A DNA stretch of 50,858 nt, the filler included, from Catajapyx aquilonaris (Eukaryota): the NCBI GenBank assembly GCA_000934665.2. It is 2 parts of 2 records of this genome, joined end to end, with 100 filler letters (N's around TTAATTAATTAA, not from the genome) between each part and the next. Parts side by side here need not be neighbours in the genome. Positions count along the whole stretch, not along the records: positions 25,459 to 50,858 come from JYFJ02005377.1; 1 more part is not named here. One strand, 5' to 3'. The notes beneath the pieces were generated by a model that saw nothing but the letters and a program-made list of their open reading frames with translations, made no database searches and was not told the origin of the DNA. Position numbers and translations under genes: made by a program. Of the stretch, positions 12,245 through 50,858 are shown in pieces; within the stretch, counting starts at the first letter, position 1, and every line of letters begins with the position of its first letter.

Positions 12245-13127
<883 letters not shown>

Positions 13128-20842: not shown

Positions 20843-21334
20843 CGCGGCGGGTGGTCAACAATGCCTGGGAAATGGTACAGGGTGTTCAACAATGCCTGGG
20901 AATAATGGTACAGGATGAAACACAACGTCTTGCGCTACCTGCTGCCTGCCCCGGGGTCAACCAACTAACCTGCCTGGTGTCTGCCCAGGTTCCATGCCCC
21001 CTGGTGCCGCCCCTGGTGCCTTCCGCCCCCTGCTGGTGGCCGACCTGGCCCACAAATTAATTAGAAAGGGAGATAATTATGAGGGGGGGAAAAAAAGGTG
21101 TCAAGTTAATCTTCCGGAAGGTGCTGCCGTCTTCCGGGCGGAGTGCAAACCAGAGGGTTACATCTTCAGACGACAGATGGCATGATGTCACCTCTTCCGG
21201 AAGGTGCTGCCGTCTGCTGGGGGAGCTGCAAACCATCAGGTCAGTACCGTATCGGCCATTACGGTTGGGGTCATTTTAAAGACAATGGGATTAATTGGAA
21301 CTGATTTTTATGTAGATAAACATGTAACAATGTC

Positions 21335-23070
21335 TCATGAGGTGAGGTTGCGTTGATGCTGCTGTTGTCGCCTGTACTCGGCTCTCAGCTCGGTCAGGTT
21401 GGCCTCCAGGAGCATCACCTCGTCCGTCTTCCCAGCCTCCCTGCGGATGGACAGAGCCGTTAAGTCTGCGGATCGGACATGCGTTGGCGTGTCTCACCTG
21501 GCCTGCTGCAGGTAGCTCTTGATGATGCGGATCTGCTGCAGCATGGGGTCCTCTTCCTGTCCCGCGCCCAGGACGGCCGCCTGGGGGCTCCATCCGCCAC
21601 CCTCAGATGGCGGCTTTGGTGCAGCAGTGGCCACCTTGCGCTTTGGGGACTCCCGCTTCACTCTCTCGTACTGCTGCTGAGCCACACGGCTCTCCTCCGC
21701 AAGCCTCTGGTGGGCCTCCATCCTGCGTCTCTCTTGAATGGTGCGGAGGTCTTCCTCCGTTGGCAGTGGAGGCAGCCCGAGGAAGTTGTGCGTCAGGAAT
21801 TGTGCCGCGGCTGACCTGATCTTCTCCCTGAGTATCCCCTCCCTTGTGCCTGGTATGACCCCGGCCCCTGCCTCAACCACCATCTTGCTGATGCGGTCAA
21901 TCCTGTCTGCGGAGGCCTGGAGCTTGCCAAAGAGCTCCTTGGCCTGGTCCAGCCTGCAGTTGGTCCTCCCTTCCCTCAGACCGACAGCCAGACCCCTGTA
22001 GGCACCCAGCAGCCTCTCCGCCTCTTCCCGCTCGCACATCAGCCGGCTGTATAGCTGCACCAAGGGAGAAGCCCCACCCTTGCCACGCGTTTCCACCGAG
22101 CGCAACCTCCCATCCAGGGACATGTGGCAGTGTGGACAGATGCGAATGCGCCAGTCAGATTCATCCCCGTACGAACCCAGGGACGATGAAGAGCCGCGTC
22201 TTAGAAGCGACGAGTCCACCTCCGGCTTCATCGTGCCAGTTAGCTTTTCTGTCAATTAAAATAGCTGTGCTCACTACTCATGTGTTGCACAAGATAGTGG
22301 GGAACCGTACTTGCGTAGTGCTGGGTGGCAAAGCAGGAGCAGTCGTCGCACATGATGCCACCACAGAGTCGGCAGTGGTGTTTTCTCCGAGCCACATGAA
22401 ATCCTCTTGCACAGTGCGGACAGAGGTTGACATGCTCATCCTCTATCCAAGGGACCAGACCCTTCTCGTGAGCTGTTTGGCAAGAAAAACAGTCAGGTCA
22501 AGAGTAAAGCGATTGGAAACACGGGTCGTTTATTCACCCTTCCGCTTGACAGGGTCCGACGGGGCTTCCAACAGCAGGCGATGCATGCGGATGATGAGTT
22601 TGTTAGTCTCGGTGGCGTAACGCTGCATGCGGGCATTACGAGTGCGCTTGAAGTAATCCGTGTGGCGCCTGGTGACACCTTTGGCAAGGTCAAAAGAATA
22701 AAGCTGGTGCGATGAACATTGATTGCAGTATACGCACCTGGTTCTTGCGGCTCCTCCTCCCCTTCCACCTGCACGAATCCGGCGTGGGGTGCCACGGCTG
22801 CTCCGACCACTCCGCTCTCCTCCTCCTGCTTCAGGATCTTCCTCTTGGCCTTACCGATGAAGCCTGTGGGAAAAGCACCAACATAAGTCATTTGGAGTCC
22901 TTTATAAACGAGAGACAGGCCGTACCCTTGATGGAGTGCAGCACGTCCTGGTCTGCGTTCGAGTGGGTGGTCTCAAAGTGCTGCTGCAGCTGGGAGATGG
23001 TTCCCAGGTCCTGCAGGCACATGGGGCACAGGAAGCCCTCCAGGACTCCTCCAGACTCCGTCCCGGACAT
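21335..23070 (-). CDS. Rbsn-5: Rabenosyn-5, FYVE-domain Rab5 effector (~476 aa, 6 exons)
   Basis: Exons 23070-22926 (C2H2 finger EGFLCPMCLQDLGTISQLQQHFETTH), 22863-22738, 22678-22538 (ETNKLIIRMHRLL), 22472-22311 (FYVE WIEDEHVNLCPHC...RRKHHCRLCGGIMCDDCS), 22248-21498 and 21440-21335 (Rab-binding DPMLQQIRIIKSYLQQAREAGKTDEVMLLEANLTEL); 1431 nt in frame. Confidence 0.93.
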
Positions 23071-25358: not shown

Positions 25359-25458
25359 NNNNNNNNNNNNNNNNNNNNNNNNNNNNNNNNNNNNNNNNNN
25401 NNTTAATTAATTAANNNNNNNNNNNNNNNNNNNNNNNNNNNNNNNNNNNNNNNNNNNN
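25359..25458. other. Artificial assembly gap/linker
   Basis: Exactly 44 N + TTAATTAATTAA + 44 N = 100 bp. The 12-mer puts stop codons in all six frames. Confidence 0.95.
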
Positions 25459-28361: not shown

Positions 28362-30509
28362 AGATTACCGAGAGTGTTATTGCCACCAAAGACTACTTTC
28401 ACCAGAGCGATTATTACGATACAGGAAATGGACCTGATATCCCGAGGCAGGAAGAAAACTTCTCCAACAACACTAACTGTAATAAGATCGGTCGTGTAAA
28501 AAAAAAATGTGTACGTACTATTTATGCAGATGAGTGATGGATACAACATGGTCAATTATTCGTATGGTAGTGAAGTGCCATTGCTATTAATCACATCAAC
28601 TTGACAGTCCTAATTGTTTTACGGCGTCTTTTTCCCCCAACGATTCATGAAAAGCATTCGTTTTACACATTTCCTACTTTCCAATGACATAACTTTGTAC
28701 TTGCTCACTTTTCTGCTGTAATTGCCGAAGTGTTTGACACTTGCCTCCGAAGGACTTTTTGGTTGAAATGTTGTTATTCGTTATGTTCTTATGATTAAAA
28801 CATGAGACATTACCTTTCTATTAATTTCAATGCCCTTCCTAACAATGTGTTTCTCCACAAATCTGAGCACAGACCTGCCAATTAACCTACGGCCTTTTTT
28901 CCCACTTATCACTTACGAGGTCCACTTCCTCAGCGAAAGCCAACCAGAGATAAAGTGGCGCTCCTTCTTTCCGATTCCGTCAATCATGTCACTTGAAAAT
29001 GCAGGTTAAACAACCGGACGTGAACTGCGACCTACATATTGAAATATCCTGGAATTCCGCAACATGCATCACTTGGCAAGGACATGGGTGACTTGCAAGG
29101 TTGCAGCACTCCAGGATAATCATGGCAGCAATGCATCTTTGATCACATCTGGGTACTAATTATTATTATTTTTCCAGATGATGTGCAGGTGGAAAGTTAT
29201 TACTAATTATGCTAAATACTGCCTAAGAAAGACTGGGAGATATTTTCTGAAAAGCACTCAAATTACGTCGTGTTTGGGGAGATGCGGGTAATTAAACTCT
29301 TTCCCTACGTCAGCTCCGGCACATGTGGTGCCCAGCTGACTGCCACCATATTCCGAGCAACAACTTTTAACGGCAGTGCCATCCTTGAAATGATTTACTA
29401 GCAAGGAAGCTACTCTCGACACCATAAAATTTGCATCCTTCGCTCCAAAAGTCTCGCAACAACTGCAAGGAGCCAGTACTCAAAAGGCTCAAAAATCTTT
29501 TCCCAAGCACAAAATCACAGCACATTCAATATTATAGAAGGAAATTAAACAAGATATATTCAAAGAGAGTCCATGTATTATTACTTCAAAGAAAAACATA
29601 CAAAATAGTACATAACTACTTTCTAACATCTGACATTTTCTCTGGACTATTGCGTTTACTGGCCTACTACAGTACATCCTGTAGTATAACACATACTGGG
29701 CGAAACATCAATACAACTGGGTGAGACACATGATCAGAAATGCTCTTCCGCTCTCAAAAGAGCAGCATCATTACAGCTGCCCCAAACGAGTTATTAACAC
29801 TGCTTTTCAATCACAGCATATAAACCTATGCGATATAACTCGGCATACTTTTCTTTAAAAAACAAAAGGTTGGTGGGGAGCTCAAGGAACAGAAAACAAA
29901 AAAAAAGGCAAAGAGATTGTCACCTAACCTATAGTACACCTTTGTACATGGAATAAATAAAACAAGAAAAAAATCTTACACAAAATGAGGTTTGTACTGT
30001 CAACTCAACCCGCAGCCAACTCTTGTCCTAGATACTATATTTTTTGTTCTTGCCGTAAAGATTTTAAGTAGATCATAATTATGCCCATCATGCCTGATAA
30101 CACAATAGCGCTCTAAGTAGTACGTTATGTTGTGGCAGCCGACTAGCATGTGATTGTGTGACTTGGCTGCTCCAAAATATTATACAGAAGCCATCCTTGA
30201 GCAAAATTAAGCAGACATCTCAAATTTGTTCTAAATCCAATTATCTAAAAAATAAAATAACAATCATCATGGAAAACACAGTGCCACATTACTTTGAAAC
30301 CTGTGAAATGCAACATAAACCCAAGGCGCTCCCTTTTGGAAATATCAGTACTTTACAACAAGCTCCTTCCACAACTTCTTTGTTTTAGTCTTACCACTAT
30401 TTTTGCTAGTTAAGTAGCTGGCCGCTTTTTATCCCGCAAATGCAATGAGTTATGGTGATCCCCCCAACAAGTCAGATCACCTTTTTTTCCCCCTCCCTTC
30501 CTTTCTTAA

Positions 30510-33500
30510 CTAATGATGACCTGCATGGAGAGACGCATCAGATCCATCACTCTCCGCACTGCTTGGAGGAGTGTCCAACTGAGGAAACTCGAGCTCGAGG
30601 TAATCCTGCGAAAAAAAAATAAGCAAGACCCAGTTTCAAAATACGCATGAAATTCTGTCACCTTGCAAACCAAGTGAAAGCAACACAAACCTCATTAGCT
30701 GCCGTTGCAAGGAGGTAATCCAGGTCCACCACTAGCTGCGAGAATGTGGGCCTCTCTGATGGCCTATCCAGCCAACATCCCTGCATCAGCTCATACCTGG
30801 CACGGAAGAGAATAAATCAGAATCCAACGTTCACGCTCATTCCAGCCATGGACTTACATTTTGAGAGAGCAGTTCTTTGGCCTCTCCATGCGATGCCCAT
30901 TCTTGAGCATCTGGTAGAGGTGCTCTGCATACACTGATGGGTATGGAGTGGCGCCCAGGGTCATGATCTCCCACAGAAGAACGCCAAAAGACCATCTGAA
31001 AGAGCATGAAAGTTTAGTGTCAAGAGCGGTTCTCAATAACGGCGCTAGAAACTGGTTAACAAAAAAAGGTACTGACACATCTGACTGGGTAGTGTAGACC
31101 CTCTGGAAGAGAGCCTCGGGGGACATCCACTTGACAGGAAGCCTGCCATCAGTGGTTTTCCTGTAGTAATCATGATAGTGAACATCCCGGGCCAAGCCAA
31201 AGTCGGCTATCTTCAAGACCCAGTCCTCGTTCACAAGTATATTTCTGGCCGCCAAGTCTCGGTGTATGCACTGCAATATAAAACCGCTGTTACCATGTGC
31301 CGTGCGGCGAACATTCACTGCATATTTGCAATGTGTGAACGGGCTTTTTAATCAATAGCGAACTACTTTGAATTTACAGTCAAGATTTGCATTTCCACAC
31401 AGATGGCATAAAATGCCAATTCCAAAAATTAAATTGCACTTGACTAGCCAAAGAGTGTCAGAATAAGTAAAGATGAGCTCACCCTCTTTGAGGCGAGGTA
31501 CTCCATCCCTCTGGCGACTTGATATGCAAATGACACGAGGGTCTTCTGCGTGAGCCACTGCTTTTCCCTCCCAACTGCTTGCTCATATCCAAACTCCCTC
31601 CTCCGATCCCTCAAAAAGTCTCTCAAGTTCCCGTTTTTGGCATACTCCACGACCACTAACAATGGTCCTCCCTGGGTGCAGCAACCCAACAAGTTGATGA
31701 TGTTGAGGTGTCTTCCAATCACTTTCATCATCTCCATCTCAGAAACCAGGGACAGCATTTCAGCATCAGTGTGGCCGTCTTTCAGCATTTTCACGGCAAC
31801 CACAGTTGTGGTGCGTGCCTGGGTTATTCCAACAGCTTCGGCCAGTACCACACGTCCAAATGCGCCTTCACCAAGGTGAGACTTGAGCTGGAGATGCTCA
31901 CGAGGAAATTCCCAAGCCAAGTCCAGTGGAATCTCATACTCGCAGAAGGCAGTTTGCTTGTCCTTCTCGTCAGGCCCTAAGGGACATATAACGGCTTGTT
32001 TCTCCAGGCGGACAACAGTGTTCAGCTGGGGGGAAAAAAGTAGAATATACAGTCAAAAACATTGCTTCAAGTGACCTGCAGTTAAGTCTTACCCATTTCC
32101 GCTCTGCTTAGAAGCATGGAATATGGAGAATCAAAAATATTGTAATTGATACATGTATAACTTAAGAGTCTGTGTCAGTTGGATTTGCCTTCACTTCAAT
32201 GTGGTTCACATTAATGTTAACAAAATCCTAGCACATCATATTGTTAACATGATAATTTAGATGGTGTGTCTTTCAAATCTTTCCATTTAGAGCAACAAAA
32301 ATTTCTGAGCGCATTGCAAAGAAACAAGTGCAACACTCACCAAGGGTTCATCCGAGTTGTTAACATTAATTCTCTCAATGTTTATCTTCTTAGTTGTCCT
32401 TTCCACAACTCTCACTTCATGTGGGACCTTCTTGTTGCGCCTTCTAATCCACAGAAGGATCAACCATATGACAACCAGTATTGCTATCATCCCTGCCACT
32501 GCAACCAGGATATGCACCAAGCTGAAGGATGAGGAAGGCTCCAGGGGCCTCTTGGTCGGGTCTCCTTCTTCTTCCAGTTCATCCACAACGTGAAGGTACG
32601 CACTGCTCTGAGACACCCCAAGCGAGTTGCCAGCCAAGCAAGTGTACCATCCTTCATCTTCTCGAGTCACATTGTGGAGAACCAGCAGTTGCGGATCAGT
32701 CATGTTCTCGCCTCGAGACTAGATTGGAAAAAAGTTAAGGTGTCAGTATGACAGGTCAATCGGTTTGCAGGGAAATCATTGGTGCATGCAGGCATGACTG
32801 AACTCATGCTGGTTGAGAGGAATTTGTTAATGTAAGCATTCACATACAATGTCAACACAACAGGAAACAATGATGGGCCAAGCAGTCACATTTTCTGCAC
32901 AATAATTGAAGACCTCGGGGGGGGGGGGAAGAGCGATCAAGGTCCACTCTTTTGTCAAAAAATGAGTTACATATCTCAGTTTCCCATGGGGTGGACCTTG
33001 ATCATTCTTCCCCTGAGGTCTTCAATTAGGAAATGGTATGCACATGACATTTAATAAGTAGTATTCAAGGGGTATTGTAAACTCACTCACTTTCAATTTA
33101 TGATGTCTAGTTATTGCATTATCTCAGTAACACATTTTAAAAGCACTGAAGTGATTGATTGAACTTTTATCGTGCAACAGCAGCAATGGGTAGTGTAGTG
33201 AGTGGGTATCTTTGAACAATAATATGCCGCCGACAATAAGTGATTCTATATTTTCCCTTAATTTGAGCAGATACAACTGACCTTTAATGCATTTTTCAAA
33301 GTTAACGTATTTTAAGCACCACAAGAAAATGACATGTACACAACATTCAGCAAAAAAAAAATGATGAAGGGATCTGAAGATCAATTAATTTTTGGTGACA
33401 TGAAGTAATGCAATACGGTACTGCAGGATGTAAAGTCTGTTAGTCCTGTGCTTTCTAGTTTCTAGTTTATCTGTTGTTAAAGTAGAATCGGCCTATTTCT

Positions 33501-36500
33501 ATTGCAGACTTTTCCATGAGCCTCACATAAATTTAGACTTCTTTAAATGCACTGCAAATAAATGGACAGTCAAGAATTAATGTGGTATTGTAGGAGCATC
33601 CCATAATGCATTTAATCCATTAAAAAATTCATATTTTGAACCACATGCATTTTAAAATAATTAGCACAAAATTTGTGGTCACAGCAGGCATGCAACCCTA
33701 TCTAAAAGTACTTAGTTAAGGTGACATGCCTCAAAACACATTCTTTCATCACACAACAGTAGGCCTATTTTCTCAAGTACACCTGGTTTTAAAAATTATT
33801 TAAACTGCTGATTGCTGTTGGCAGTCTAAATAATTTTCATTTTGGGTACCAACTTGCTGTTGCATGAAGTAATGTGTTCCCTAACTCATTGTCAATGTTT
33901 GCATGAACTTGTCCTTGGCTTACAGACGACAAGTACATTATTAGTAGGCATATCAGTACAGCATGCTAAAATATTAATAATGATCAGCAAGCATTATGGC
34001 ATGTCCAACTCTCCGTCTCGCTGGCAGTTGGTGAAAACATCTGCAAACATTTTGGGGCTACAGTAATTAAGGGAAAGGGTGAGACGTCACAAAGTGTGTG
34101 GCCTCTTCTTGGCAGGGCAACAGCAATGAAGTTCTCAGCAAGCATGTCATCTCTTGCCAGGCCAAAAACTTCAAAACACACAAACTCCATCTCCATGCAC
34201 ATTCTCGTTTCCGAGTCCAGACCTGTATTTCTAAGTGGTACGGTATGCTGTCACTGTCGATGTACGATTCATTGATCAGGTAGTGCCTAATCCATATGAT
34301 GTGTGGGTGGAGGTCCGAAAAAATCTTGCAGGTGAAGTGTACGGTGGAGCCGATAGATTCAGTCAAGTTGTGAGACGTCTCGGTGAAGATGGGTCTATGC
34401 ATCACACGTTCTGAAAACGAAGATTTCCAATGGGCCTTTCTGCTTGTACTTTTTCACCCAAAATCTTTTTTGTACCACCCTGATCCTCGGGGATCTCTCA
34501 AGCCTTTGGCTAAATCTAACCTGTCCTCCGCTGAATCCTCACCTGTAAACACATGCAAACACCAAGCATGCCACATATATTCCACACAAATTCCAGTGCA
34601 TGTGGGAGGTCCCTCCCAGTTGCACCACTTCCCACTCATGCACTTACTTACCTCCATAATCTGGTAAGTGTCGTGCATTTCATATGTGAAGTTCAGGCTT
34701 GAGTGGAACACCCACTCAAAGAAGGGCTCCAAGTCTACGAAATACAGTGGGCACTTGAAGGCTGCCACTGTCCCCACCAACGCTGTGATGTTCTCCGGGT
34801 AACCAGTTTTGATGTATGGCCGATGAGGAAGTCGCTCTGAAAACAGCATGCGCATGCAGAGGGGTGAGGAAAACGAGAGGTGTTAGAGGGACTTGGCTTA
34901 TTCCCACCCATTCCGTAATCTCATTGAAGATTCACTTTTCTGCATTTAATAACTGAATGTAATTGCAATGCATGACTGACACAACAAAGAAAGTTGCATC
35001 AAACTGATGTGGACCAAAAAATCATTACTTTGTCTTTCCATAAGAGTTACGTCACTATTACACACAGCAATGTTTGTGTCACAATTTTTTATTGATTAAC
35101 TAATTATATTTATGTAAGAAGATTGGCTGAACATTTTAAGTACAGGATGGTACACTGCTTAAGTTGACACTGCCAACTATTATGTGGGATAAAACGTGAT
35201 GCTCCAGATGTGTCTGTGCATTTCCATCCAGCATTAATCCATCACATTTTACCCAAAGCTATTGTTGGAGGTGTCGCCTAACAGGCAGTTTACCACCCTG
35301 CTTATTCTGTAATATTCTATGATTGTTACGTGCCCGTCACCGCAATCATATACATGGCAGTCCTTATTACACATAGCTGGAATTTTTTAACGGCCTTGTA
35401 ATCACTAATTTTTATATGACTTTTAAAGGCTCACCCCAGGCTGCCATTTTTTCCGTGGCCCTCTGTGGGAATGGGAACAAGTCCAATTTTATGCACACAC
35501 ATTTCATTTTTTAATGCTCTTGCTGAGAAACCCGCTTAGCCGAGATCAAGTTTATTTTGGAATTTATTGTCCTGCTGGTTCAACAACAAGTTATGGTACC
35601 AATGAGCAGACGGCAACATGAAGAGTAACTGAAGGCCCCAAACAGTTATTAGCTCAATTTCCATAGGCAATTAATTATGATGTTTAATGGTCTCATAATT
35701 ATCATTATATTGCAAGTTTTTGCCTAATTTTGTTGTTACATGTAAATTGTGCATAAATTGAAGGTCTGTAAAATACCAAGGTACGTAGAAGGATAGGTCC
35801 CAATGCAAAGATTTCTCCGACTTCTAATGAACAATAATTAATCTCGTATACGTATATTGCATCTTCCTGTACATCCAAATTTAGGGCAAATAGTTTGACC
35901 ATGTAACAAGGACTGCATGTACACATTTCCAAAGTCAACAATACCCAACTTTTAGAGATACTGCAAAAGTAACAGAATCGATCTAATTCTTTTCAGCAAC
36001 AATTCCCAAAAAGCAACCAAACCAAAGCCAGAAGAAGGATTTACAGCAAGGTAGGGTTCATGCACCACTCCAAGTTTAAAAAATTCATACATCATGCTGC
36101 ATATGTTAGGTTACGCACATTAGAGGCAGCTAAATACAAGCTCAAGCTTTTCAAAAAAAAAAAAAACCTAGAGGAATAAAGCCAATATCTGTGCTCCAAA
36201 AGTGGCACAAGCATTAACTTTAATTCCTCTTTGGCTACTCACCACCACCATCACCAGGACCACCACCACTAGCCACTGTACTCACAAGTCACAACACAGC
36301 ACATTTGTACACCCAAACTCAATCACAGCATGCACACCATAATCCGGCAGTGAAATCGTATTAAAGTATTTTCTGAACAAAGAGAATGCCTACCTTGCAC
36401 TTCCAGTTCAAAGACGTGACTGATGACCCCTTCTGTATTGTTCACAATGCAAGTGTAAACACCTGCGTCAGAAACCACCACTTCCTCCAGAGTCAAGCCC

Positions 36501-39500
36501 CATTTTGTGATCTTCACATCTCCAAGTTGACGAGTAGGAGGATGCCCACCTTTTAGCCATGTCACTTGCGGTGTAGGATATCCTGCAAAAAATAAATTTT
36601 GATTGATGTCACTGTATAATTTAAGAAAAATTGCAAATTTGATGCTCACCATCTGCTTTGCACTTAAAATTGGCTGTGGTCCCTGCAGGTTTGACCATAA
36701 GTGGAAGCATCATCTTTGTGAAGACAGGCGCACGGGGTGTTTCTCCCTCAGGATCTTGCTCCGCTGTTTCCTCCGGTTCCTCAGTGTTGTTGGTCAACGA
36801 TTCCTCAGTGTCCACGGTTGCATCAAACATCTGTTCTGTCTTGTCCCCTGTCCATACCCTGGACAGCACCTCATGCTTGACAGTAGATGTAACGTCTCCA
36901 TTCTCAGCATGCTACAGTGCAAAATCTCAGTATTAAAAACTCAGGTGAAGGCCAATTATTGCAATAATCACCTCTGAGATCAGAGCATCAGCATCTCCAA
37001 GTGGTATCTGAAACTCAGGCTGTCCTTCCCATACGGACCCATCTTCTCCTAGCACAGCAACAGTGAGGTTCCGTACGTCTTTTCCATGTCGACAGGAATA
37101 CACTCCAGAGTCCTCTTCTTCAGCCTTGTTAATCACCAAACTGTACAAGCATGGTGTTAATTAGTTACTTAGTCACTAACAAATAATTAATATGCAAAGA
37201 TTAGGTGCCCTTACTGCAACTTCTTATCCTTGAACTTGATTCGTTTAATGTTGGTTGAGTTTCTCTTGAAACCCTGACCATTCTTGAACCATTCCCTCTG
37301 GATCTGCAGCTGACATACCAGTCTCAACGTGGTCCCTGCATTCACAACAGCCACTTCCGATCGTGTCCGAGACGACCAATCCTCCAATACTGAAACACAC
37401 ATTCATTAATTATTGTACCGGTCGTTCCCCCATTAAAATTCATCACATTCCAGGAAAACTAGAGCAACATCACAAAAAAACTTGGCATAAAATCTGATGT
37501 CCTCATCTCTTTCTGTCGGCGCTCAACCACTCCCCCGGGGTCAAAGGTCAGTCGCTCAGAGGCGGCCGGTCAATTCGGCGCGCGTGTACAAAAGTGTCTG
37601 CACGTGACCTCATGCTCATGATGCATTTTTATCCATAGCTCAACTACGCCTCAGGGAGGGGTCATCAGATTTTTTGGGGGGAGGCCTCTCGACCTTCGCA
37701 ACCTCCCGGCTTAGTTGCCAAACTTTGGGGTCCTCGGGTATACACAAAAACCCACCATTTTTCTATGCAGACAGGTCACAAAAGGATGGGCACCAAGTGG
37801 ACAATAAAAAGGTGAAAAGGCCTTTCCTTATTGTTCCCACTGATCGACCTTGGCCAAAGCTGCATGACCTGCTCATGTTCCTTCGAGGGAGGAGGTGATG
37901 TCACAGAAGCCAGGGCTAATTGCTTTCTAATAATACACCAATACATCAGAGGTCATTTTTTTTAAACGCATCCAAGCTACCTGATCCTAGAGGCAAGGTC
38001 CGCAAAAATATTTGTTACTGATACTTAACACGAGCTACTTATCAACATGTCACAAACAAAGAAGTGATAGCATCTGAACGCTGCACTCTTTTTTTAAAGT
38101 ATATTTCGATCAAATTTTTTTTGGTACATGTCGTCTACATGTGGTGGTGAAGGTCACCGCGATATGGCCCCTCCTTATCCCTCAGGATGAGAGGTCATCG
38201 TCGCCTCCAGATTAATACATGTGAAGAAAGATCCGCCAAAAAGAGCGTACAGGCACGTGTAGGTCTTGACTTTTCCTGGACAAGAGAATTTTCCCTCCCA
38301 AAAATTTCGGAGGGGGGGTCGGAGCCCAGCCGTTGGCAGGGGGGCCAAAAGTGGTTAGAAAACCCAGCAGGGCCCATATAACCCAAACACGAAAACGGTT
38401 TTACTATGGTGCTTGTTGCCAGGACCCCCAAACTTTTGTTTTTTCTCTCTTCACCGAATATGTAACCGTACGCAGAATAATGCTCCCTGGCAATCCTGCA
38501 ATTCCGATTGCGATCTTAGTTGCGAAACATGACGTCTTTTCGTCTGAAAAAAACCCCCTGAATAATAGAATTTTCTACGCAGTATATCATCGGGTCCTTT
38601 TCCTTTTTCTTCAAACTCCAAGCACTTGTCCCGTATTGTCCAAAAACGGGATATTTCTAACAAAGGAGCAGCCCCCAAGTGACAACCATGGGCAATGGTC
38701 AGCAACTAGGGGCTATCAATTACCCTGCCGCCCCCCTGACGCGCTTCGAAGCTCCCCCTGGCCCCTCTTCTCAACCCAAAAACACCCACCAAAAAGGGCC
38801 AAGAGTCCTTCAAGGAGGGAACAGGGGGAACACTACAACCCCTGAAGTGAAAAGAGGACAAAAAGCAGCACCTGGGTACAAGCTTTCCCCATCAAAAAAA
38901 AGAGCATCGAGTTCATCAAAGAAACCAGCATCCCTGCAAAATCCATTCCTTGGGGACGTGCAGCCAAACCCCAGGGTCCCCCTTCCCCCGCCCCAAAAAA
39001 ATCTTTTTTTTCCAGGAAGGACCCCCCGAAATTTTCCTCACTGAGAAACACGAACCTTTTCAGCCCCCCTCCCCCTGGGGGGCTAACCCTAGAAGATTTT
39101 GGGGATTCAATTTTGGCGCTATTTTTATAACACCCCGGGTAAAATCCTCTCCGGCTCCAGTAAATTACGAGTGTAAAACCATTTACCACCTTTTGAGCGG
39201 CTGTCATGACCATTCTGCATGACAAAAGGCGCACCTGCCCCGATCGTCCATCTCACTCCGGAGGAACAAGACCTCTTTAAAAAATTCCTTCAGCATCCTG
39301 GAGCAAGCCCGCTAATTAATTTTATCCGATTAAAAAAAAGGACTGGTCATCACTCCGTTTAATCGCCATAGTACATGATGCAATTATCCGGATGAGTCGA
39401 TTAACCGACAGAACGGGCCAGAAGTTGTCATTGAATATTTTTTTTTGGGGGGGGGGGGGAAGCCGTGAAGGATAATGATAAGACGAACATAAATTAAATT

Positions 39501-40534
39501 AATCTTTAAAAATGCATGGAGCTTCGGTGCACCGCAGCGGTTCGCCCAAAATGGATAAACATTCCACTTTTAGCAGTGTTTATGCAAAAATATTATTGGA
39601 TAGCCTTGGACGTTGCATATAGGCCCAATTATTCACCTTGTCGATGTTTACACGACGGGTCGTTTTTCCTCACAACCAGTGCATTAGCAGGCACAGCGCT
39701 CAGAAAAATAATGTTAAGTCCAGGCTGCGTCCGTTGTCGAAAAGCCATATACCAAGGAAGCCTTAGGGGGCGTCCTTTTCAAAATAAATTTCCCTGGACG
39801 CCCATTGGCCGGTTCAGAAAACTTCTGCAGAGATGAAGCTTCTCCCTTTTACAGCATCTGCTTGGCAGATGACTGCCCTTTTCAGCATGAAGCCTATTTG
39901 AGGAGCACCCGCAGCATGTGTGTGAGTGACTCGAGGCGCACGACTTGAGTAATGCAACCTTGCACAGTGCAAACCATAACCCTATTTATTACTAGGAGGG
40001 GTGTAACTCAAAAGCAATCCTTTCGCCACTAATCATTTTTGAGGTGTCGCGCCAAGATGGCCGCGAGAAAGAAATCCAAGTTGCATATTGTGCAAGTGGC
40101 GAATTAACTGGGTCAGCAGGTGTGTACTCTTCAAGATTGGAGATGCTCCAAAGGGTCATGCCTGGCTCAGAAATCAGACGTTATATCAGGCAACTGCAGC
40201 CAGAAAACTAAAAGGACCTCCAAATTGTGCTGATGCCTCCTAAAATTTTCTTCCCACGCACTAAAGTCTATCTCAGCACATCTACGTTTCGGTCTCCCAA
40301 AAAAATGTTCAGGAGAGTCTCTCATCCCATGTGCTCGTGTCAAGCCAAGGTAAGTGCGCAGTCATGCTGGATAACCAACTGCAGCTGGTGAGAGCCGATT
40401 AGGACCATACCCGAAAATGTTGGGTTATCGACAATTGGGCGCCGGCCGGCCCGTCTCTACATGATAAACTCACCTAATTTGGTCTCCTTGGCGATGGCCA
40501 CAGCAACCAGAGTTAGCAACCACAGCTGCTGCAT
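30510..40534 (-). CDS. FGFR: Fibroblast growth factor receptor: signal peptide, 3 Ig domains, acid box, TM, tyrosine kinase (~831 aa)
   Basis: Exons 40534-40474 ([15 protein letters not shown]), 37389-37215, 37140-36972, 36911-36650, 36582-36394, [34836-34652 or 34410-34223], 32718-32341 (TM), 32025-31483 ([16 protein letters not shown]), 31270-31077 ([35 protein letters not shown]), 30995-30858, 30796-30691 and 30605-30510 (DYLEL). The total is 2496 nt in frame using the first alternative exon. Confidence 0.96.
32903..33028. mobile_element. ~126-bp MITE-like inverted repeat in an FGFR intron
   Basis: TAATTGAAGACCTC(G)n-GAAGAGCGATCAAGGTCCAC pairs with GTGGACCTTGATCATTCTTCCCCTGAGGTCTTCAATTA; TA at both outer ends. 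Confidence 0.7.
34223..34410 (-). CDS. FGFR: FGFR alternative exon B (N-terminal half of IgIII)
   Basis: ttttcag|AA CGT GTG ATG CAT AGA CCC ... ATA CAG|gtctgg; 188 nt, phase 1 to 0; [43 protein letters not shown], the more canonical FGFR-like version. Confidence 0.88.
34652..34836 (-). CDS. FGFR: FGFR alternative exon A (N-terminal half of IgIII)
   Basis: ttttcag|AG CGA CTT CCT CAT CGG CCA ... ATG GAG|gtaagt; 185 nt, phase 1 to 0; [45 protein letters not shown]. Confidence 0.8.
37538..38197. promoter_or_regulatory. Nuclear-receptor half-site cluster with a perfect DR1
   Basis: GGGTCA-A-AGGTCA at 37538-37550 plus RGGTCA/TGACCY at 37605, 37659, 37773, 37865, 37950, 38151 and 38192. Confidence 0.5.
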
Positions 40535-43500
40535 CGTACCTCAGTGGCCGCCTGAAACAAACATCAGAAAAATCAGTCCAACAGTCTCAAAGTTACCAAA
40601 AACCGCGTGATGCATCCAGCCCTAATCCAACAGTCAGACAAACACATTAATTGGTCTTCAAGGTCCACACCAATCTAAATCTCCTGGGAAGTCGGGAGCC
40701 ATCTCAGGACACTCAACCAGACATGCATATAAGCCCCCAAAAAATTCACATTTTTATCGGCCACTCCTTATGCTGAGATGACCACACCAAAAAATATTTG
40801 CATACAAAGACAGGAATTGCACGTCTTGGTATATATAAAGTGTGGGAAACTCTCCAAGAAAATCGTGACATGTCTTACTGGACAATGGGGCTATATTGAT
40901 GATGGATTGGGTTGATTGGATGTTTGGGAGTCTGCGGGTTAAGTGCTGGAGATACACCTCTTAGGGCCATGTGGAAAAGATAATTCCAGGGGGGGATGAT
41001 AAGACTTTGGGAACCAGAAGAGAAAAGAGATGGCCCGGGAAGAAAAGAAATCCAAGGTCGAATTCTCTTGAGGAGGGTGACATTAAAAGGCGGGTTTGAG
41101 ATTTCGAGGAGGGGATAAGGGGGAAAAAATTATATATAAAAAAAACATCTTATAAAAATATAGGGTTCCTGAAGGAAGAGCCTGGAATTTATTGAACTTT
41201 TCCCACACAAATTTTGGTCCAACAAACCGTTAGCTGTCTGAATTCATATAGACCGAACTGAACGACTGTAGCAACGACGCTCGTGTGAACCCGCTTTTTT
41301 TTCCTAGCCTAAACACATTTCGACCCCCCCTTCTCTTGTAAGGATCTTTCGGCGAGATCCTCCAGTGAATAAAAACGTCTGAAGTTAGCGTCCCAACTGG
41401 TTGCGCTTGACTGAAGAGGAAATTCCTGCGAATGGCGCCAGCCCGGAAGTGCTACCGAAGAGATCGTAAATCAAGCTCGCACGTTGGCTAACTCAAGAAG
41501 TAAGTCACCCCCTAGAAAACTCCACCTTCCAATCCTATATAACTACATTTTTAACGTAGACGTTACTTGTTTCCAACTATACGATTGGTCCAGAGTCTCT
41601 CAAGAGAGCCTTCTTTTCCCACGGGCTCGAGATACAGGGGGATACAAGTCTTCTTCTTGCTGGAGGATGGGTGTCCCCCAAGCCCGAACTAATTGGTGTT
41701 CCACTAGTTCCAGGCCCAGAAACGGGGTAAAAGAGTGGTCCTGGGCGTCCCCCAAGCCAGTCTCAACGGGATTTCTGACAAGGACGCCTCTCATTTTGTC
41801 ACACAAAAACTGATGAGTCGTCCAGTCAAAGCGAGTCAAAGTATCAAGTTAATTCGTCAGTGAATCACGCCAACGTGGGTCTAAAACCTATTTCAAGGTG
41901 AGGTCCTTACATTTGAAAAGCCGATCACACGCTTCTTTGACAATAGAGCCATGTGGCTTTTAGTCAAAACCATATGGTATCGCACCTGACTGAGCCGCAT
42001 AAGCAGCTCTCTCACCAGAACTTACAGATCGAACAGGGCAATGTAAATGACCCCAATGGCGTCTTATTTTAAACCATGTGCTCACCACTAATTCGAACCT
42101 GGTTGTAATAAAACCGGCAGCAGCGTCAAATGCCAATGTAAACACAGTAGCTAGGGATCTGCCGCTAATCCTGCTCCATTCAACACTTTTTTCGCGCGCC
42201 AAAATCTGCTGACCTCTCTCCTTTGACCCAACACCTGGGCGTAACCAACCGAACAAGTGCCTAATCAGCACTGGCCCAAAGCTTACCTCTTTTTTAAAAA
42301 AAAAAAAAAAAGTCTGCCCAACCCAACCGATCAACCCTGGTTAAAAACCGTGGCCAACTGGCAACAAGCCTGCTGTTCCTCCTTCCCTAAAAAAAGATAA
42401 GCCCACCATTTTATATCCTCCACATCTTACAGGTCCGACTTGCTAAATTGTACCTTGAGCCGGGTCAATTTTTTTTTCGGGGAGTCTCAAAAAATTCAAG
42501 AGAGGGGTGCAACACATCTGGCCCAACTTTTCCATGGTGTTTGTGTATCTTGGCTCACCCAACCACCCACTGCTTTTTTGGGAATCGGGTTGCAGCATCT
42601 TCCCACCAAATCGCACCTGTTTCTCCGCTTCAACTTTTTTTTTTTAAATCCAGAAGGTCTGTCAATCACCACCAAAAAAAATGTCTTCCGTGCCACCTTA
42701 TCTGGGCGAACTTGTCTTTCACTCGGCTTTTTTTTGGGAGTTACCTGTGTGCCTTGTTCGTCAAACGCAGCCTTTGACAACGGTCCAGTGGCAACAATCG
42801 CCTGTCATAAACAGATGTCAACGACTTTGTTTTTCTCCGGCCCGGCGCTAAATCCGCTGAGCAAGGACACACAATGCTTCCTCAAATTCCTAAAGAGGAC
42901 TTGGGTGATAACTAAAACCAACCCTTTTGCCCGTCACCAGATACGACAACAACATAATGCAACCTGCGGTGCCACCCGTCACCACACATGCCTCTGTCAA
43001 CCGAACAACAATTGACAATTTTTGTGTGGGTCTGTCATATACGTGCAGCGTGACTGATTTTCAACAAGTTTCGCAAGACCGCAACATTTGCAGTTTATTT
43101 ATACCGGCAATGTGTGTACGTGTGTGTGTGTGCACTCGAAGCAAGCACATTTCACGGTGAGTGTATCGCAGTTTTGCGGCCAGCACGTGGATAGCGCAGT
43201 TTAGAGGAAGCCGCTTACGCAACTCTTTTTCGTAGAATCCTTTCCAACCCATGATTTAGCCCAGTCCCAGATGCAAATGGATATAGCTCCACATACTGAT
43301 GGCATGTATATCTAGTGACGCATAGCAGAACATGTCAAGATCGACTTTAAAACAAACCAGAACACCAGACTTACTAGTATAGTACCAGGTGTCACTAAAG
43401 TAATGCACCGAATGCGGTACATATTGTGACGATTAGGGGGAAAAAAAAGCGTGTCACATGTTTTTTTTTTAAATTTAAAAAATAGTTGGTGTGTGAATGC

Positions 43501-46500
43501 GTTAATAGCAGTTAAAAGCACAAACCTTTTTCACGCGGCTGTCTCCGTCATGTTTGCCACCGTCAACAAATAGTCACTGATTCCGACGGTGTGTCACTTT
43601 TGGCAATTTCCAACTCAACAGACCTTACTCGAAGACACGGTCTCAGAAGACTGAGGAGAAGCAAACTGGGGCTGGGGCTGGGGGAAAAGGGGAGCTCCCG
43701 TCACACTAGCGTCTCCCCCATCTGGTTGCCGCTAGTGCGAGCCCCCGACCGACCAACCACCAGTCTTCCTCCTTCCCCGAATCTGAGCGCCGCCTAGGCT
43801 AATCTCCAAGCCAAGAGGCGCAGTTTATTTCTGGACCACCCCGCGTTTTCGGGATTAACCTCTTCTTGCAACAAGGGTTACTGACTGCCCTTTATCTCAC
43901 TCCATACGCCCCCCCCCCCCGTACTACACCCCCCCTATGTCACGCACGTAACATTTTCCCCCAGTAAGCCACGCCCACAGACTCCCCCCCATGTCACGCA
44001 TGTAACACTATTCCGGACACCCCCCCCCCCCTTTTTAAATTAGCCACTCCCACGCACTTGTGTGTACCTCCCTTCTTGAAGATTGTGTAGCTAAGGCTAA
44101 TCGTAGGCCGGATGAAGGCCTGGCTATATAAGATGACACTGACCAGAGGCGTTGGAAGCCCCAAAACCGACACCTGGGGAGCATTAGTTTATTTGACTTT
44201 TTGGTTGCTGAAGTTTGCGAAGCGCGCCTGTGACTCCAGGGAAGAGATCAGGGGACCGGGGGGTTCAAAACACGGGGGCGCCGTGATTCGGAAAGGGGCT
44301 GGAATATTAGTGGAAAGTCATAAAGGATTGATTGTTCTGAGCATGTTTCAGGAGGGGATGGGGAGTCACATGGGTTGGATCCAAGCACGTCCTGCATACG
44401 GCTGACAAAAAGTTTGGGGACTCTCATTACAATTATCATACTACTAATCCCCTTATTCTCTCCGTCTGTTTATACTTTGACTCATCGCCTAAGTAGTAGC
44501 TTCAATGCTTGTGGACTTTGTCCGCGCGGTGACTCATCACCAACGTGCATGCAGTGCTACTTTCTCCCTGAGAGTGGCAGTAGTGTGCAGAGAGGGACGT
44601 TCAAGTGTGTGTGTGNGGCAAGCAGTGTTGCCAAAATTAGGTAACGAGTCATCTACTAGTTAGGGTCGAATTCAGAGCTAGATGTCCTAAACGCATGGTT
44701 AGAGGGTGTTTAATATTATGTCGCATGTCGTACCCTGTAAGGACACCTCATAAAACACTTACAACTTCGTAACACCATATTTCGCAAATGATGACGATGT
44801 AACAAGGGGACTCAAAAATAGCCAAAAATTTCCGAGTTGCAACATTAGAGCACGTGTGCAATAAAACAAGCCAAATTTGGCAACCCCGACCAGGTCGTCA
44901 CCCGTATATCACAGTATGCAAAAACCCAGCCCTCACACAGCGTGTAATAATATAAGAGAGAGAGAGAGAGTCGCATCGACAAACCTACGCATGTGTACGT
45001 GCGTCCAATCGCAGATGATGAACATACCGGATCCTACCTCCTTCTTTGGCATTTTCTTCGGATATGATCTACGAGCATCTACCTCTACAACTGACGTCTG
45101 CACTTATGTACACACATGCGGTTTGCCATTTTTCTTCTTGTTGTACTATACACCGACGCAAATGTCCTTCCTCAGCATCACATCAGCCAGGGCAGTAAAC
45201 AGCTAAAAAATTTCTGATTTCCGGCGCCCACACCGCGCAGATATTTTGGACCCCTAAAAAATAGGGCCTGCCCTAAATACATATCCGCAACTCCAAAAAA
45301 AAAAGAAGCTATCTCAAGACCTGGCCATACGCCACACCCCTCCTTAAGAATTGATAATAGTCCTCCCAACACCTTTCCAGCTAAAAAGCCAGACTGTGCG
45401 ACGCCCCCAAAGATGTGTACTACAGGTCCGTCCCGAAAGAGGCGTCGTCAGCGTCGGACTCATGCCAAGGTGGGGTCAACTCACAGAAGCGCCGCGATCA
45501 TTTCAACCTACCTTTGGTCTTCTCGCCAATTTCCGCTCGTAACCGACCATTTTCTATGTGCTGCTGTGTGCGCGGATCTAACCCGCCTTCATCCATCTTC
45601 AGCTTCCGGTTTCCTTTTTTCATTTTCCATTGGGGTCCCATCCCATTCTTAGGGGGGTCCCCTTTTGCTAGTCTCGGATGTCTTCTGCTTCCTGCACCTT
45701 TTCTTCCTGGATCGTCAATGGCCTTTTATCTCTGGAGCACCAAGGACTTTGATGATAACCCACTCGCCTCCACTTTTGGGACGATTTTGTAGAAAAAGGG
45801 TGACACTTGGGGGTGTCAAGTGGTTTCGTTTGACGACACTCAAAGCGACAGAAAGAGCAACAAAGGGTGATTTTATAAAGCGAAATTATTCCCGAAATCG
45901 CAATCAGAACAATTCGCGAATAATGCAAATAAATTACTGGGCGCACGTGCGACGCCCACGTCATGACTGAGGTAACCCCTACGCCCCTTCTTGTCTTCCT
46001 CTTCGTATTTTTTCTTTCGTTGATGGCACGAACCATGAGATGGACGAACCTGGCGCACCGCCTTTAAGATATTTCCAGTCTCCTAAAAATAAAGGCGGCG
46101 GCTTAGAAAAAAAAGGAGGACTCGAAAAAAAGAAGAAATGGAATGAAAGACTTTTTTTTTTTTCTTTTGCTCCAACCATTCCCCAGCACCCCCATACCGT
46201 CACCTCATACCCGTCATTATAACATAGAACTTCCAGCGCGAAATTTTGGGCTTGAGACCAGCGAAAAGGACCTTCGAAGACAGGATGGGACCGCACGTGC
46301 GCCAAAAACCATCCCACCTTGGACCCCAGGCTTGCTTTTCTGGTTCATTCAATAATCATCCAGAGGCTGCTTCATTCAAGCTTCAAAGAGAGTACGCCGA
46401 ATGGGGACGAAGAACACACGTGGCTGCTGTCCTTCATGACACCTGGGTTGGGGATCATCAGGACGGATCATCTTTGCGGTTTGTTTGTAACCCGATCATG

Positions 46501-46517
46501 TTACACGCGCACGGATC

Positions 46518-46981
46518 ACGATTCAACCAATAGGAGTCAGCGACTCCTAACAACAGCCAATCGGCATTGTTTGAGTGGGAGGAGCCAGTAGAGTCTCTCA
46601 ACCAATCCCAGGCAGCGATTCCTGTTAGAAGCCAATCGGAAGTGTTTCAGTGGGAGGAGCCAGTAGAGTCTCTCAACCAATCCCAGGCAGCGATTCCTGT
46701 CAGCAGCCAATCGGTATTGTTTGAGTGGGAGGAGTCAGTAGAGTCTCTCAACCAAACCCAGGCAGCGATTCCTGTCACCAGCCAATCGGCATTGTTTGAG
46801 TGGGAGGAGCCATTAGTCTCTCAACTAATCCAAGACAATTGTTAGACTCCGCCCAGTCAAACGATGCCTATTGGCTGCTGACATGAATCGCTGTCTGGGA
46901 TTGGTTGAAACACCAGACTGGCTCCTCCCACTCAATCTCGATTGGCTGCTGTTAGTCGCTGTCTGCTATTGGCTGAATCGT
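46518..46981. mobile_element. Foldback-like element: 75-bp tandem array plus an inverted copy
   Basis: About 3.7 copies of a 75-bp unit (AGCCAATCGGCATTGTTTGAGTGGGAGGAGCCAGTAGAGTCTCTCAACCAATCCCAGGCAGCGATTCCTG...) at 46555-46830 and an inverted degenerate copy at 46870-46950. The termini ACGATTCA(A/G)CCAATAG are inverted repeats. Confidence 0.75.
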
Positions 46982-49900
46982 CCAATTTTCTGCGCCCAAA
47001 ATTTTTATGCCCAATTATTTTCTTCCCCCCTTTTTTTTAAGCGCCATAAGCCCGCGCTTCAAGATGGCGTCTCCGATTCAACAATATTTTTTGGGATCAG
47101 GCCCAGAAACAGTTGGCAGCTTAGCCCCCCTGTTTCTGTGGACAAAGTCCCGTGTCCCTCGTTCCCCTTGAGCGTGCAACCCTAGTAAATGATAAATCAC
47201 GTCTGGGGGAGGTGGGCTGGACAGAGTCTGGCTGGCAAATCCCCAGAAAGTGTCCCAGGATGGTCAAGGGCCACTCCTAAGCTTCCTCTTCGTCTTTTTT
47301 TTTTCCTTCTTCTTTCTCTACACGCAGCAGACCACTCCTCAAGTTCTGACTTACGACCTCTGCACATATTATTTTTCCTCAAGAGTGCATTGGCATTTTT
47401 GTTTTTAAAATGAGGTCGTTTGGCAGACTGAGTTCTCTCAAGTGGCGTCAAGTGCTATCTTCAGATGGGTTGCACCGATAGCTTGTTTCGGCCAAGTACC
47501 ATTGAAGAAACATCCCATCCACTTTTGGCGTCGGAGGGAAAGAGAGACGTCGGTTGGGTGTTGATGAGAGGAGACGGCGTATATAGGGGAAAAGGGGGGA
47601 GAAATTTTCTGTCGGAAAAAGTTTCTTTTGGGCAACGACCCTTCTTTTGCTATCTTTGGCTGCCAGATGAAGCCGAGCTGATTTTTGGGGCCGACCAGTT
47701 CTATGTAGGTAAGCGCAGTATTTATGAACAGTATTGAACTTGAGTCGGCTATAATTACTTTTTTTTTTTCAAGGTGAAAGGAAGACCGCAAGGTTTTAGT
47801 GTGGGCCAGGTGCACCCTTGCGCCCCAAAATCCAGGGTAACACCATCCGGACTGTTGCAACTACGATCTGCCAACTTTGGAGAAGAAAAGCACGTGGCCC
47901 CCATCCATGTTGCCTCTCTTCAGCCCCCTTTTCAAACACCCAACTAACCCCTTACGACGACTTTGTCTTCGAGTCAATAAAGTACAACGAGTTGCAACCT
48001 TGCGATGGAGGGGGTTCCTTCGTGTGGCATAAACAAAAATCAAAAGTGGAGGAGGAGGGGGGTTTGCTTCTAAAGTTGTGGGCATCGAGCCAATCTCAAG
48101 AGTTTTTCCAAGGTGTGGCCACCATTTCTGTTGGGGAGTCCCTGCCTTGAATTCCGCCATTCTGCCTTACATGACATCCGTTTAGAAAGCCAATTTCTAT
48201 CAGTCAAGTCCATATATACGCTCTTGGTTTTCATTTTATGGTAAACCTGTCAGTTAATTGTTTCAAAATATTTTTAGAATTATTGAGTAATCAGTAGGCC
48301 AACCAAAGAGTCAATGGACTGGCTGCTCCGAACTGAAATCAGTTTAGGTTAAATGTTTTGCAGCCAGTTCGGTGTTTAAAACTGGCCGATATTCTCAGGT
48401 TTATAGCCTGGCTGTTCCACAGAAATGGGCTGTATATCATTTACCTCTTTTGGTGAATAGGCCCTGTCTTATGAGTAAGTATTTATGACCTGTTTCTAAA
48501 AGAAGGTTCGTTAAAATAAAAAAAAAAGTGGGCTCCAGTTTGGGGGAAATTTTCTGCCTCGAACTGTCATCAAACCAAAAATTATTTCAGAGGTGGTGAC
48601 CGTATCTAACAGTTAACATGTGTTGCCCTTGCTTAGCCCCTACACTTCATAAAGATGGTTTTGTAAGAAAATTGCTCCTGGTTAAGATCTGCCGTCGGTT
48701 CAACCCTGCGTGACAGCCACACCCTTTTTTTTTTTTTTTTTGGTGGCTACAATTCTGTATAAATATTATGGTTGATATTAACTTACTGTTGTGACACTTG
48801 CTAAGTACAAAAGTCAGAAGCAAGCAAAGCAGACTTGCTGCCCAAATGTTTAAACGACCTCACGCGCACAGTTTACATCATTGACAAAACAAGTAACCCG
48901 GCCGCTCAGTACTCTTGGCACCAGACACTGTTGATGTGCAAGACCACTGATTGACACCTGGTGACTTAAAATACGCCATTGCTTCTTGGGGGCCACCTTA
49001 GGAGTCCCCCCCAAAAAATAAGGAGGAAGTAAGGGGGGGTTGTGAAAAGGAGGAGAGAGAAAAAAAAGAAGGGCAAGGCAGGCAAAGCATCTGGAAATTT
49101 GTCCGCCTCCTGTCGCTTAAAATAGCCGCGACTATCTCTCCTGGCTTGAGACTACCAACTAAGAAGGACGCAGCCAGTAAGGATCATGCTGGCTGGCTTC
49201 CTCCTACAAATTGCACGCCACCTTCTTCCCACCTTCCAAAAAGCAGAAGGCTCTTTCTCGTCTTTCCTCTCTGGCACGTGACACTTCATTTTTTCACCCC
49301 CACCCTCCAGACTTTTGTCTTTTTCTTACCCCCTCCCTATCCGCACACAACTGTCTCTTTCTGTGGCTGTCACCACTGAGGAAATGGCAAGTCGGAAAGA
49401 AGGTGTGACGCCCCCCATGGGGAGAGGCTTTGACAATAATTATTTCTGGGGTGTATTCCGGTCTCATTTTCTTTCCCCGCCAGCAGCAATGTTTCCAACC
49501 AGATACTACCACTAGGAAAGATTCTGATTGTCCCCAGCAGCAGTGGAACAGATGGAAAGTTGTTTGGATAGGTTCGACGCAACGCGTGCCACTCGTTTGT
49601 TACAATCTTCCTCTGGTATAGCAAACAAAGGAGGGCCAGTTGGTAGATATGCGGACAAGTGGCAGGAGACTATCCATTTTATCGAACACACAAATTAATT
49701 TGAACGGCTTCCAAGGCAAATAAAACAAATGCCAGAGTTGGCACCATGAAGCTGTCTACTGCTGGCTGCTGGGGTGGAGATGAGATATACTCTGGGTTTG
49801 CTTGCTGTCTCTACAAATGAAGGAGTTCATTTCCAGACCAGCTGCTTTTTCTTGTACCCTGATCTTGGATGGTTTCAACCACAATGGACACAATGATTCA

Positions 49901-50858
49901 GAAGAAAACAGTGTCGTTATTTTTAGAGGCAGACGCTGTTTTGCGAAAATTGGCATCAAGGTGTGTCTGTGAGAGACAAGCCTGCACTGACACTATGTGC
50001 CACGTTGATTTCTCTATTTTTAGACACCTCCATTTACGGTCCGACTTCCCATAAATAAGCATTTGATCATACATATAAAACTTATTGGTTGCTGTTCAAT
50101 CAGCAACAAAATCGCTGGCCAAAACGGACAGTAGGTTTTTTTGAAAACACCCTGTATAAGGCCACAATGATGTCAAGTAGGCTGTAAAGATACCATAATT
50201 GCTCTCTCCTTCCTCGGATGTTTCTGGGGCGGTACTCCTCCACTTCGTAGGCAATAAATTACACTTCAGAGAGTATGAGGCCTAACCCCTCGAGCCTGCT
50301 GGAGACAAATGGCGTGCTCTTCAACTCGAAATGCTACTTCTCAATCTTTAAAAAAAATTCAGTACCGCTAATCCAACTTATCCACTATCACATTTTGCTG
50401 GGGGGGGAAAAATCGGGTCAGTCAATATAAATTAATAACTCGATATGGATAATAATTTCGTCATAAACTCAACTTGGAAAGCTTGGGAGAAATATCCGTC
50501 CCACTGCTAGTTACTGCTAACTTTTAGCAGTGCCAGTATCAACACTGGTACTGCTACTCCCTAGCAGTGGGACCCGAAAATTCCACCATTTGTCAGCTGA
50601 AATGTTGCCACGAATTTATCCAGAGGAATATAATTATTACATAAACCCGATTTTTTTTAAAGATATTTTTCTATACTGCAAATTATGCAAATTCCGCCTA
50701 TTAATGTGATGCTCACTTAATCACGGAGTTATTTCTATCTCGCGATTTATTGTGCGTTTTCGTTACGTGATATGAACAGTCCCGTACTTCAAGGTTGCGT
50801 AACGTCCTACGCAAGTGCAGCTTATGCACCGATAACCGCTTCCATGAATTCCTCTACA

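Follow-up and report, generated by a model that had tools for sequence, protein, structure and literature searches.

In vertebrate FGF receptors (FGFR1-3), exons IIIb and IIIc are mutually exclusive alternatives within one gene, and their exchange in the third immunoglobulin (Ig) domain, IgIII, alters the ligand-binding surface. The two exons duplicate the C-terminal half of IgIII, and control by Esrp is a chordate feature of this switch. In C. elegans, exons 5A and 5B of egl-15 are mutually exclusive as well and allow one FGFR gene to produce two ligand-specific forms; these exons are unrelated and lie between IgI and IgII. Here, we describe a pair of tandem alternative exons for the N-terminal half of IgIII in an FGFR gene of the arthropod Catajapyx aquilonaris. 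The DNA analyzed, henceforth the window, comprises 50,858 nucleotides of assembly GCA_000934665.2 and consists of parts of two records joined end to end, the FGFR gene being located in the part from JYFJ02005377.1 (positions 25,459 to 50,858).

The closest described counterpart is the exon-IIIa pair of insects, for which Sharma et al. 2015 (Dev Biol 402:264), by its title a study of Tribolium FGFR isoforms for different FGF ligands, is reportedly the source cited. The legend to Fig. 7 of Burguera et al. 2017 (PMC5703972) draws the pair for honey bee and Tribolium. In the passages of that paper used here, its origin is regarded as independent of vertebrate IIIb/IIIc, the IIIb/IIIc duplication is described as chordate-specific, the single IIIb/c exon of non-chordates is constitutive, and further alternative-splicing events are stated to have arisen independently at the same 'hotspot'. 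According to the legend to Fig. 2 of PMC11885702, distinct isoforms of the one Tribolium FGFR gene receive FGF8 and Branchless. The original suggestion that a single gene might here do the work that Drosophila divides between the paralogues htl and btl thus corresponds to what the title of Sharma et al. 2015 conveys for Tribolium. The exon-IIIa pair is not described outside insects in the papers found. For Tribolium it is already established that one FGFR gene can serve two ligand families by exchanging a linker and the N-terminal half of the Ig domain that binds ligand, and this principle is annotated across insects. The window contributes a further carrier, belonging to an arthropod lineage that is poorly sampled, and the only possible news is a range of the pair beyond insects.

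On the sequence evidence, it is likely that the exon pair in the window is the arthropod, and so far insect-type, FGFR exon-IIIa pair, that is, two ancient tandem copies of which one would be spliced into each productive mRNA. Like the FGFR genes of Tribolium castaneum and the honey bee, the window gene has two tandem IIIa copies, here predicted to be mutually exclusive, before a single IIIb/c-type exon, and by sequence likeness the copies fall into the same two classes. The gene is carried on the minus strand of 30500-37200, where Pfam I-set Ig halves and a tyrosine-kinase domain are found on exons; all FGFR exons given below are on this strand. A constitutive upstream exon (36394..36582; boundaries cag/GATATCC and GTGCAAG/gtaggc, the slash marking the exon limit) encodes the second half of IgII and ends in phase 1. 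It was recognized from its sequence, from a Pfam I-set match to positions 26-90 of 90 (E 2.3e-10) and from tblastn high-scoring segment pairs (HSPs) with five relatives. Downstream of it lie alternative exons IIIa-A (34652..34836, 185 nucleotides) and IIIa-B (34223..34410, 188 nucleotides), hereafter exons A and B. Each encodes the D2-D3 linker and the first half of IgIII, of A-type and B-type respectively, and each begins in phase 1 and ends in phase 0. A GT-AG intron of 241 nucleotides (34411..34651) lies between them. The shared exon (32341..32718; boundaries ctag/TCTCGAGG and CCCTTG/gtgagt) is present in a single copy and encodes the second half of IgIII with the second Cys, the transmembrane helix and the start of the juxtamembrane region; it matches Pfam I-set positions 55-90 of 90, and a hydrophobic stretch follows IgIII. 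The introns around the alternative exons measure 1557, 241 and 1504 nucleotides, and all are GT-AG.

Both alternative exons are bounded by recognizable splice sites, ...ctgttttcag/ and GAG/gtaagt (a consensus donor) for exon A, and ...cgttttcag/ and CAG/gtctgg (a weaker donor than that of exon A) for exon B. The codon split across the upstream junction yields Glu in either case, as the G at 36394 gives GAG with exon A and GAA with exon B. Both peptides start with E-R-x-x-H-R-P and contain the core Trp as well as the first cysteine of the Ig domain (FKC in A, FTC in B), and both exons join the shared exon at 32718 in phase 0. These data confirm the original prediction of two tandem homologous exons of 185 and 188 nucleotides in coordinates, splice sites, phases, cysteine motifs and Trp, and refine the limits of the neighboring exons to 36582-36394 and 32718-32341. 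The single shared exon with the second Cys that was part of the same prediction was likewise recovered, since tblastn with the five relatives gave one match, 32718-32341, for the C-terminal half of IgIII.

At the peptide level exons A and B share 19/51 identities (BLASTP, single comparison, E 1e-9), and at the nucleotide level no significant similarity between them was detected (best match 12 nucleotides, E 0.17). The lack of A/B similarity in the DNA indicates an old duplication, and an artefact of assembly as the source of the pair was thereby ruled out. All minus-strand frames of at least 15 amino acids in 30000-38500 were scored with a profile made from 76 IIIa segments of other species; exon B reached 73.0 bits and exon A 64.3 bits, both well beyond chance level, the next-best frame reached 6.8 bits, and no third IIIa copy was found among these frames. 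Exon B additionally matches Pfam I-set positions 1-37 of 90 and aligns to residues 252-307 of human FGFR1 (PDB 8jqi_B) and to D3 of FGFR1-4 in 21 PDB sequences. It keeps the older, tick- and vertebrate-like motif R-H-Y-x-x-N-x-S-Y after the Trp, which insect B-type exons have lost. Exon B is closer than exon A to the ancestral and vertebrate form.

Translation of the four possible splice products revealed that A-only and B-only messages are open through the shared exon. In contrast, the A+B product reaches a stop two codons into B, after N-V, and the product skipping both exons reaches one after seven codons, V-S-R-R-E-H-D. The expectation that including both exons or neither would break the frame was thereby borne out. 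In such messages the early stop lies far upstream of the last junctions and nonsense-mediated decay is expected. Exclusivity would then be enforced by the reading frame together with nonsense-mediated decay, and both exons would be used in C. aquilonaris, with a regulated choice of splice sites, consensus donor on A versus weaker donor on B, selecting one exon per cell type. Two other causes of exclusivity were considered and rejected: steric hindrance, because the 241-nucleotide intron is long enough for splicing, and U2/U12 incompatibility, because all four sites are GT-AG. It is highly improbable that exon A functions mainly as a 'poison' exon, whose inclusion with B would create a premature stop and lower receptor output instead of producing a second receptor. 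The stop two codons into B fits such a role, as does the intron between A and B, which can be spliced, but the coding-level A-type conservation described below would be unexplained if the exon were never translated, and A-only proteins exist in insect records.

For comparison with other species, IIIa segments were taken from the best 120 of 4757 protein matches to the first kinase exon (E<=1e-20), from 92 matches to exon A and from cluster members. Among the best 120, named proteins are nearly all arthropod FGFRs with at most 73% identity. The second source was obtained by searching the whole library by HMMER with only exon A as query; of the 92 proteins retrieved at E<=0.001, many have the A-type motif. 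Insects were found to have two sharply differing IIIa versions at the same residue number. The A-type is marked by Pro at position 4, P-Y-I-K, G-x-P, C-P and D-L-E-P, and the B-type by P-I-L-T and S-D-L-H-P. Both types occur as separate records in seven insect species: Apis mellifera (X2/X1), Tribolium castaneum (X1/X2), Diabrotica (X1/X2), Xylocopa (X3/X2), Schistocerca (X1/X2), Popillia (two records) and Cloeon (two records). The segment lies at residue 432 in both T. castaneum X1 (A-type) and X2 (B-type), and at residue 271 in both Apis X2 (A-type) and X1 (B-type).

The two exons of the window sort with these two classes. A-type segments score 52-67 bits against exon A and 25-42 bits against exon B, and the order is reversed for B-type segments. 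Thus, exons A and B score 57.0 and 38.9 bits with A. mellifera X2 versus 26.2 and 45.4 bits with X1, 64.7 and 26.6 bits with T. castaneum X1 versus 30.4 and 42.4 bits with X2, and 62.8 and 31.2 bits with one Popillia record versus 24.6 and 50.8 bits with the other. Moreover, of the 17 positions with at least 80% conservation among 24 A-type exons, exon A retains 16, the sole change being Lys to Arg, and the retained positions include those that distinguish the A-type from the B-type (Pro at position 4, P-Y-I-K, G-x-P, C-P and D-L-E-P). Exon B keeps all 12 conserved B-type positions. In a gene model of Zootermopsis both segments are present in one protein, 68 residues apart, with A before B as in the window; this model looks like a read-through of both exons. 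Other public models with A- and B-type segments in one protein come from Tribolium madens, Zophobas, Onthophagus and Timema. In the beetle models the two segments are separated by 210-454 residues, a spacing suggestive of fused models or additional Ig modules.

The named carriers of an A-type exon found here are all insects. Ten of 20 clusters carried names; six of these contain A-type fragments, from Timema, Ranatra, Cloeon, Cyamophila, Brassicogethes and Cydia, all insects, a seventh, from the midge Culicoides, contains an A-type-like segment, and the remaining named clusters (two fishes, Trichinella, Strigamia) contain none. Another dipteran record has a B-type segment. No named non-insect A-type exon was found among the kinase-exon matches listed (best 120 of 4757), the exon-A matches and the named clusters.

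A phylogenetic tree of IIIa segments was constructed from 69 species-named proteins and 9 others, after collapsing six identical rows and removing an IgII segment (Lygus, position 245), giving 78 rows and 64 columns. Consistent with the motif comparison, exon A is placed together with 24 insect A-type rows in a starred clade (25 rows in all, support 95/92). Exon B groups with 27 insect B-type rows, with weaker support (82/73). Judged by these comparisons, the pair in the window is already known in kind, most likely corresponding to the IIIa event of honey bee and Tribolium and not to a new invention, and it is well preserved and very probably functional. The claim of a newly seen, independently evolved switch is therefore not supported, as exons A and B group with insect A- and B-type exons and the event is already in print (PMC5703972, in the parts cited above). 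What stands of the original interpretation is an old, frame-incompatible pair for the N-terminal half of IgIII; what lacks support is its standing as a new and separate case. Its comparison with vertebrates was upheld. Vertebrate IIIb/IIIc duplicates the C-terminal half of IgIII, whereas in the window the N-terminal half is duplicated and the C-terminal exon is single, which makes the pair distinct from IIIb/IIIc, and the mirror image it was proposed to be, independent of the vertebrate event and plausible as a switch of ligand specificity.

Several observations weigh against identifying the window exons with the insect pair as two functional alternatives. The branch leading to exon A in the IIIa tree is long (1.7 versus 0.69 for exon B), and an approximately unbiased (AU) test keeps the tree in which exons A and B of the window are sisters (log-likelihood 16.4 lower, p 0.141), although with 64 columns the test has little power. 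Exon A has no Pfam match at E<=0.01, and its open reading frame (ORF), 34882-34454, overruns both splice sites, so that openness alone is weak evidence of coding. Word-index protein searches with exon A alone and with exon B alone gave no match, and in the collections searched no relative exceeded 73% identity over the kinase domain (best 120 of 4757 matches listed). Furthermore, no convincing set of docking and selector RNA pairings of the Dscam or 14-3-3xi type was detected in 32600-36500; the 14 inverted pairs in this region measure 13-23 nucleotides each, and none ties both exons to one site. Finally, the assignment of a ligand to each exon, discussed below, would rest wholly on Tribolium by homology.

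Some of these observations would be accounted for by a separate duplication in the window lineage, followed by convergence on the insect A-type motif, in which case 'independently evolved' would be correct even with respect to insects. In addition to the result of the AU test and the long branch of exon A, Burguera et al. 2017 (PMC5703972, in the passages used here) portray the region as a hotspot where alternative splicing has evolved repeatedly, and the two decapod versions presented below cluster together (99/90), suggesting that repeated duplications are possible. We nevertheless consider such convergence unlikely, because exon A has the A-type residue at 16 of 17 positions, including the ones that discriminate A from B, because the unconstrained tree places it in the A-type clade (95/92), because its BLAST scores favor A-type over B-type segments (52-67 versus 25-42 bits), and because the A-then-B order is the same in Zootermopsis. 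Likewise, exon A could be a relic that looks intact but is unused or rarely used, with only the B isoform being made. The long branch, the missing Pfam match, the frame that remains open into the flanking introns and the word search that yielded no close homologue are all compatible with this. It is quite improbable, however, given that both splice sites of exon A are at homologous positions, its donor is a perfect consensus and its frame is intact, and given that 16 of 17 A-type positions have been kept through a divergence that erased the A/B similarity in the DNA, under which neutral sequence would have lost them.

If the window exons are indeed the insect-type IIIa pair, the two receptors would differ in FGF ligand preference, one for FGF8-like, the other for Branchless-like ligands, as reported for Tribolium. 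The piece swapped would include the D2-D3 linker and the betaB'-betaC loop, which are ligand contacts in vertebrate FGF-FGFR structures. The linker residue just ahead of H-R-P, at a position aligned to a proline, is Pro in exon A and Met in exon B, and the exons also differ along the Cys-to-Trp stretch that holds the betaB'-betaC loop. With respect to this linker, we take Pro252 of FGFR1 to be the counterpart of Pro253 of FGFR2. In the sections of PMC6379346 used here, D2, D3 and the linker are all reported to be needed for ligand binding, and the linker mutations S252W and P253R to alter ligand specificity. The same sections describe the ligand cleft of D3 as built from both halves of IgIII, the first half contributing the betaB' strand and the betaB'-betaC loop, and the second the betaC'-betaE loop. 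Which exon of the window would serve which ligand can be suggested by analogy with Tribolium.

The position of C. aquilonaris with respect to insects determines how far the pair extends. A kinase-domain tree of 52 rows (35 chosen named records, 16 others and the window) places the window FGFR within the group holding all sampled insects (Shimodaira-Hasegawa-like approximate likelihood ratio test, SH-aLRT, 86) and outside the malacostracan clade (99). Its branch is long, 0.88 versus a median of 0.034, and it adjoins, but is not nested in, the sampled pterygote insect orders. The window gene thus differs from those of Tribolium and honey bee in being on a long branch outside these orders, and in its exon usage and ligand preference being predictions.

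Two IIIa versions at one protein position were also found in the RefSeq FGFRs of six decapods (Homarus, Procambarus, Panulirus, Macrobrachium, Palaemon and Eriocheir). Neither has the A-type motif, and one of them is without the first cysteine of the Ig disulphide and has a loop that is 2-3 residues longer. The decapod versions cluster together in the tree, yet an AU test keeps the odd version and the A-type exons as one clade (p 0.209). The odd decapod version may thus be a diverged A-type exon or the product of a separate duplication. Two alternatively spliced FGFR1 isoforms are reported for two crabs in PMC11024359; the text seen of that paper does not state the site at which they differ.

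The location of the window beside the sampled insect orders, the AU result for the odd decapod version with the A-type exons, and the A-type-like midge and B-type dipteran records lead us to put forward, tentatively and as the less probable course of events, that the A/B duplication of exon IIIa predates insects. The window lineage would then be outside Pterygota, the odd decapod exon would be a diverged A-type exon, and the switch would have arisen in pancrustaceans and persisted over hundreds of millions of years; the fly genes heartless and breathless, which have no introns, might then be retrocopies, each freezing one isoform. If the lineage is non-insect, the event is older than the literature states, the label 'insect-specific' would need widening and the age of the switch might become datable.

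The remainder of the FGFR gene is less sharply delimited at its ends. Upstream exons encoding the end of IgI, an acidic stretch and the first half of IgII lie at 36650..37160 (approximate limits, from ORFs and tblastn HSPs at 36749-36648). Tyrosine-kinase exons were identified by tblastn and Pfam at 32025-31483, 31270-31077 and 30995-30858 (span 30858..32025), with PK_Tyr_Ser-Thr matches at E 1.1e-33 and 1.3e-41, and further 3' exons are located approximately near 30795-30691 and 30629-30513. The GT-AG intron of 81 nucleotides within the kinase domain (31076-30996) is in frame and stop-free, and its retention would add 27 residues between kinase subdomains without truncation. Within the intron that separates exon B from the shared exon lies a long imperfect hairpin (32903-33028) with nested inverted repeats of 19 nucleotides (95%) and 23 nucleotides (91%), possibly a small inverted-repeat transposon or else an intronic RNA with a structure of its own; an Rfam search over 30000-38000, hairpin included, gave no match at gathering scores.

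Elsewhere in the window, ORF translation alone points to a putative paired-box (Pax) exon at 3100-3400 (plus strand), a putative proteasome alpha-type subunit at 12276-13127 (minus), an intronless leucine-rich ORF of 539 residues at 13645-15264 (plus), two putative paralogous genes of one family at 16583-17362 and 19684-20854 (both minus), and a putative FYVE-finger protein at 21494-22497 (minus). A long open stretch at 10700-11660 on the minus strand can be read, in more than one frame, as tandem copies of a peptide unit about 19 residues long (FEHIPSPPIRTHSVSFHSNTFRLLP). Single N letters are present at 4344 and 44616, and runs of N at 25359-25402 and 25415-25458. The region upstream of the FGFR exons, 37600-50858, is rich in low-complexity, repeat-like ORFs.

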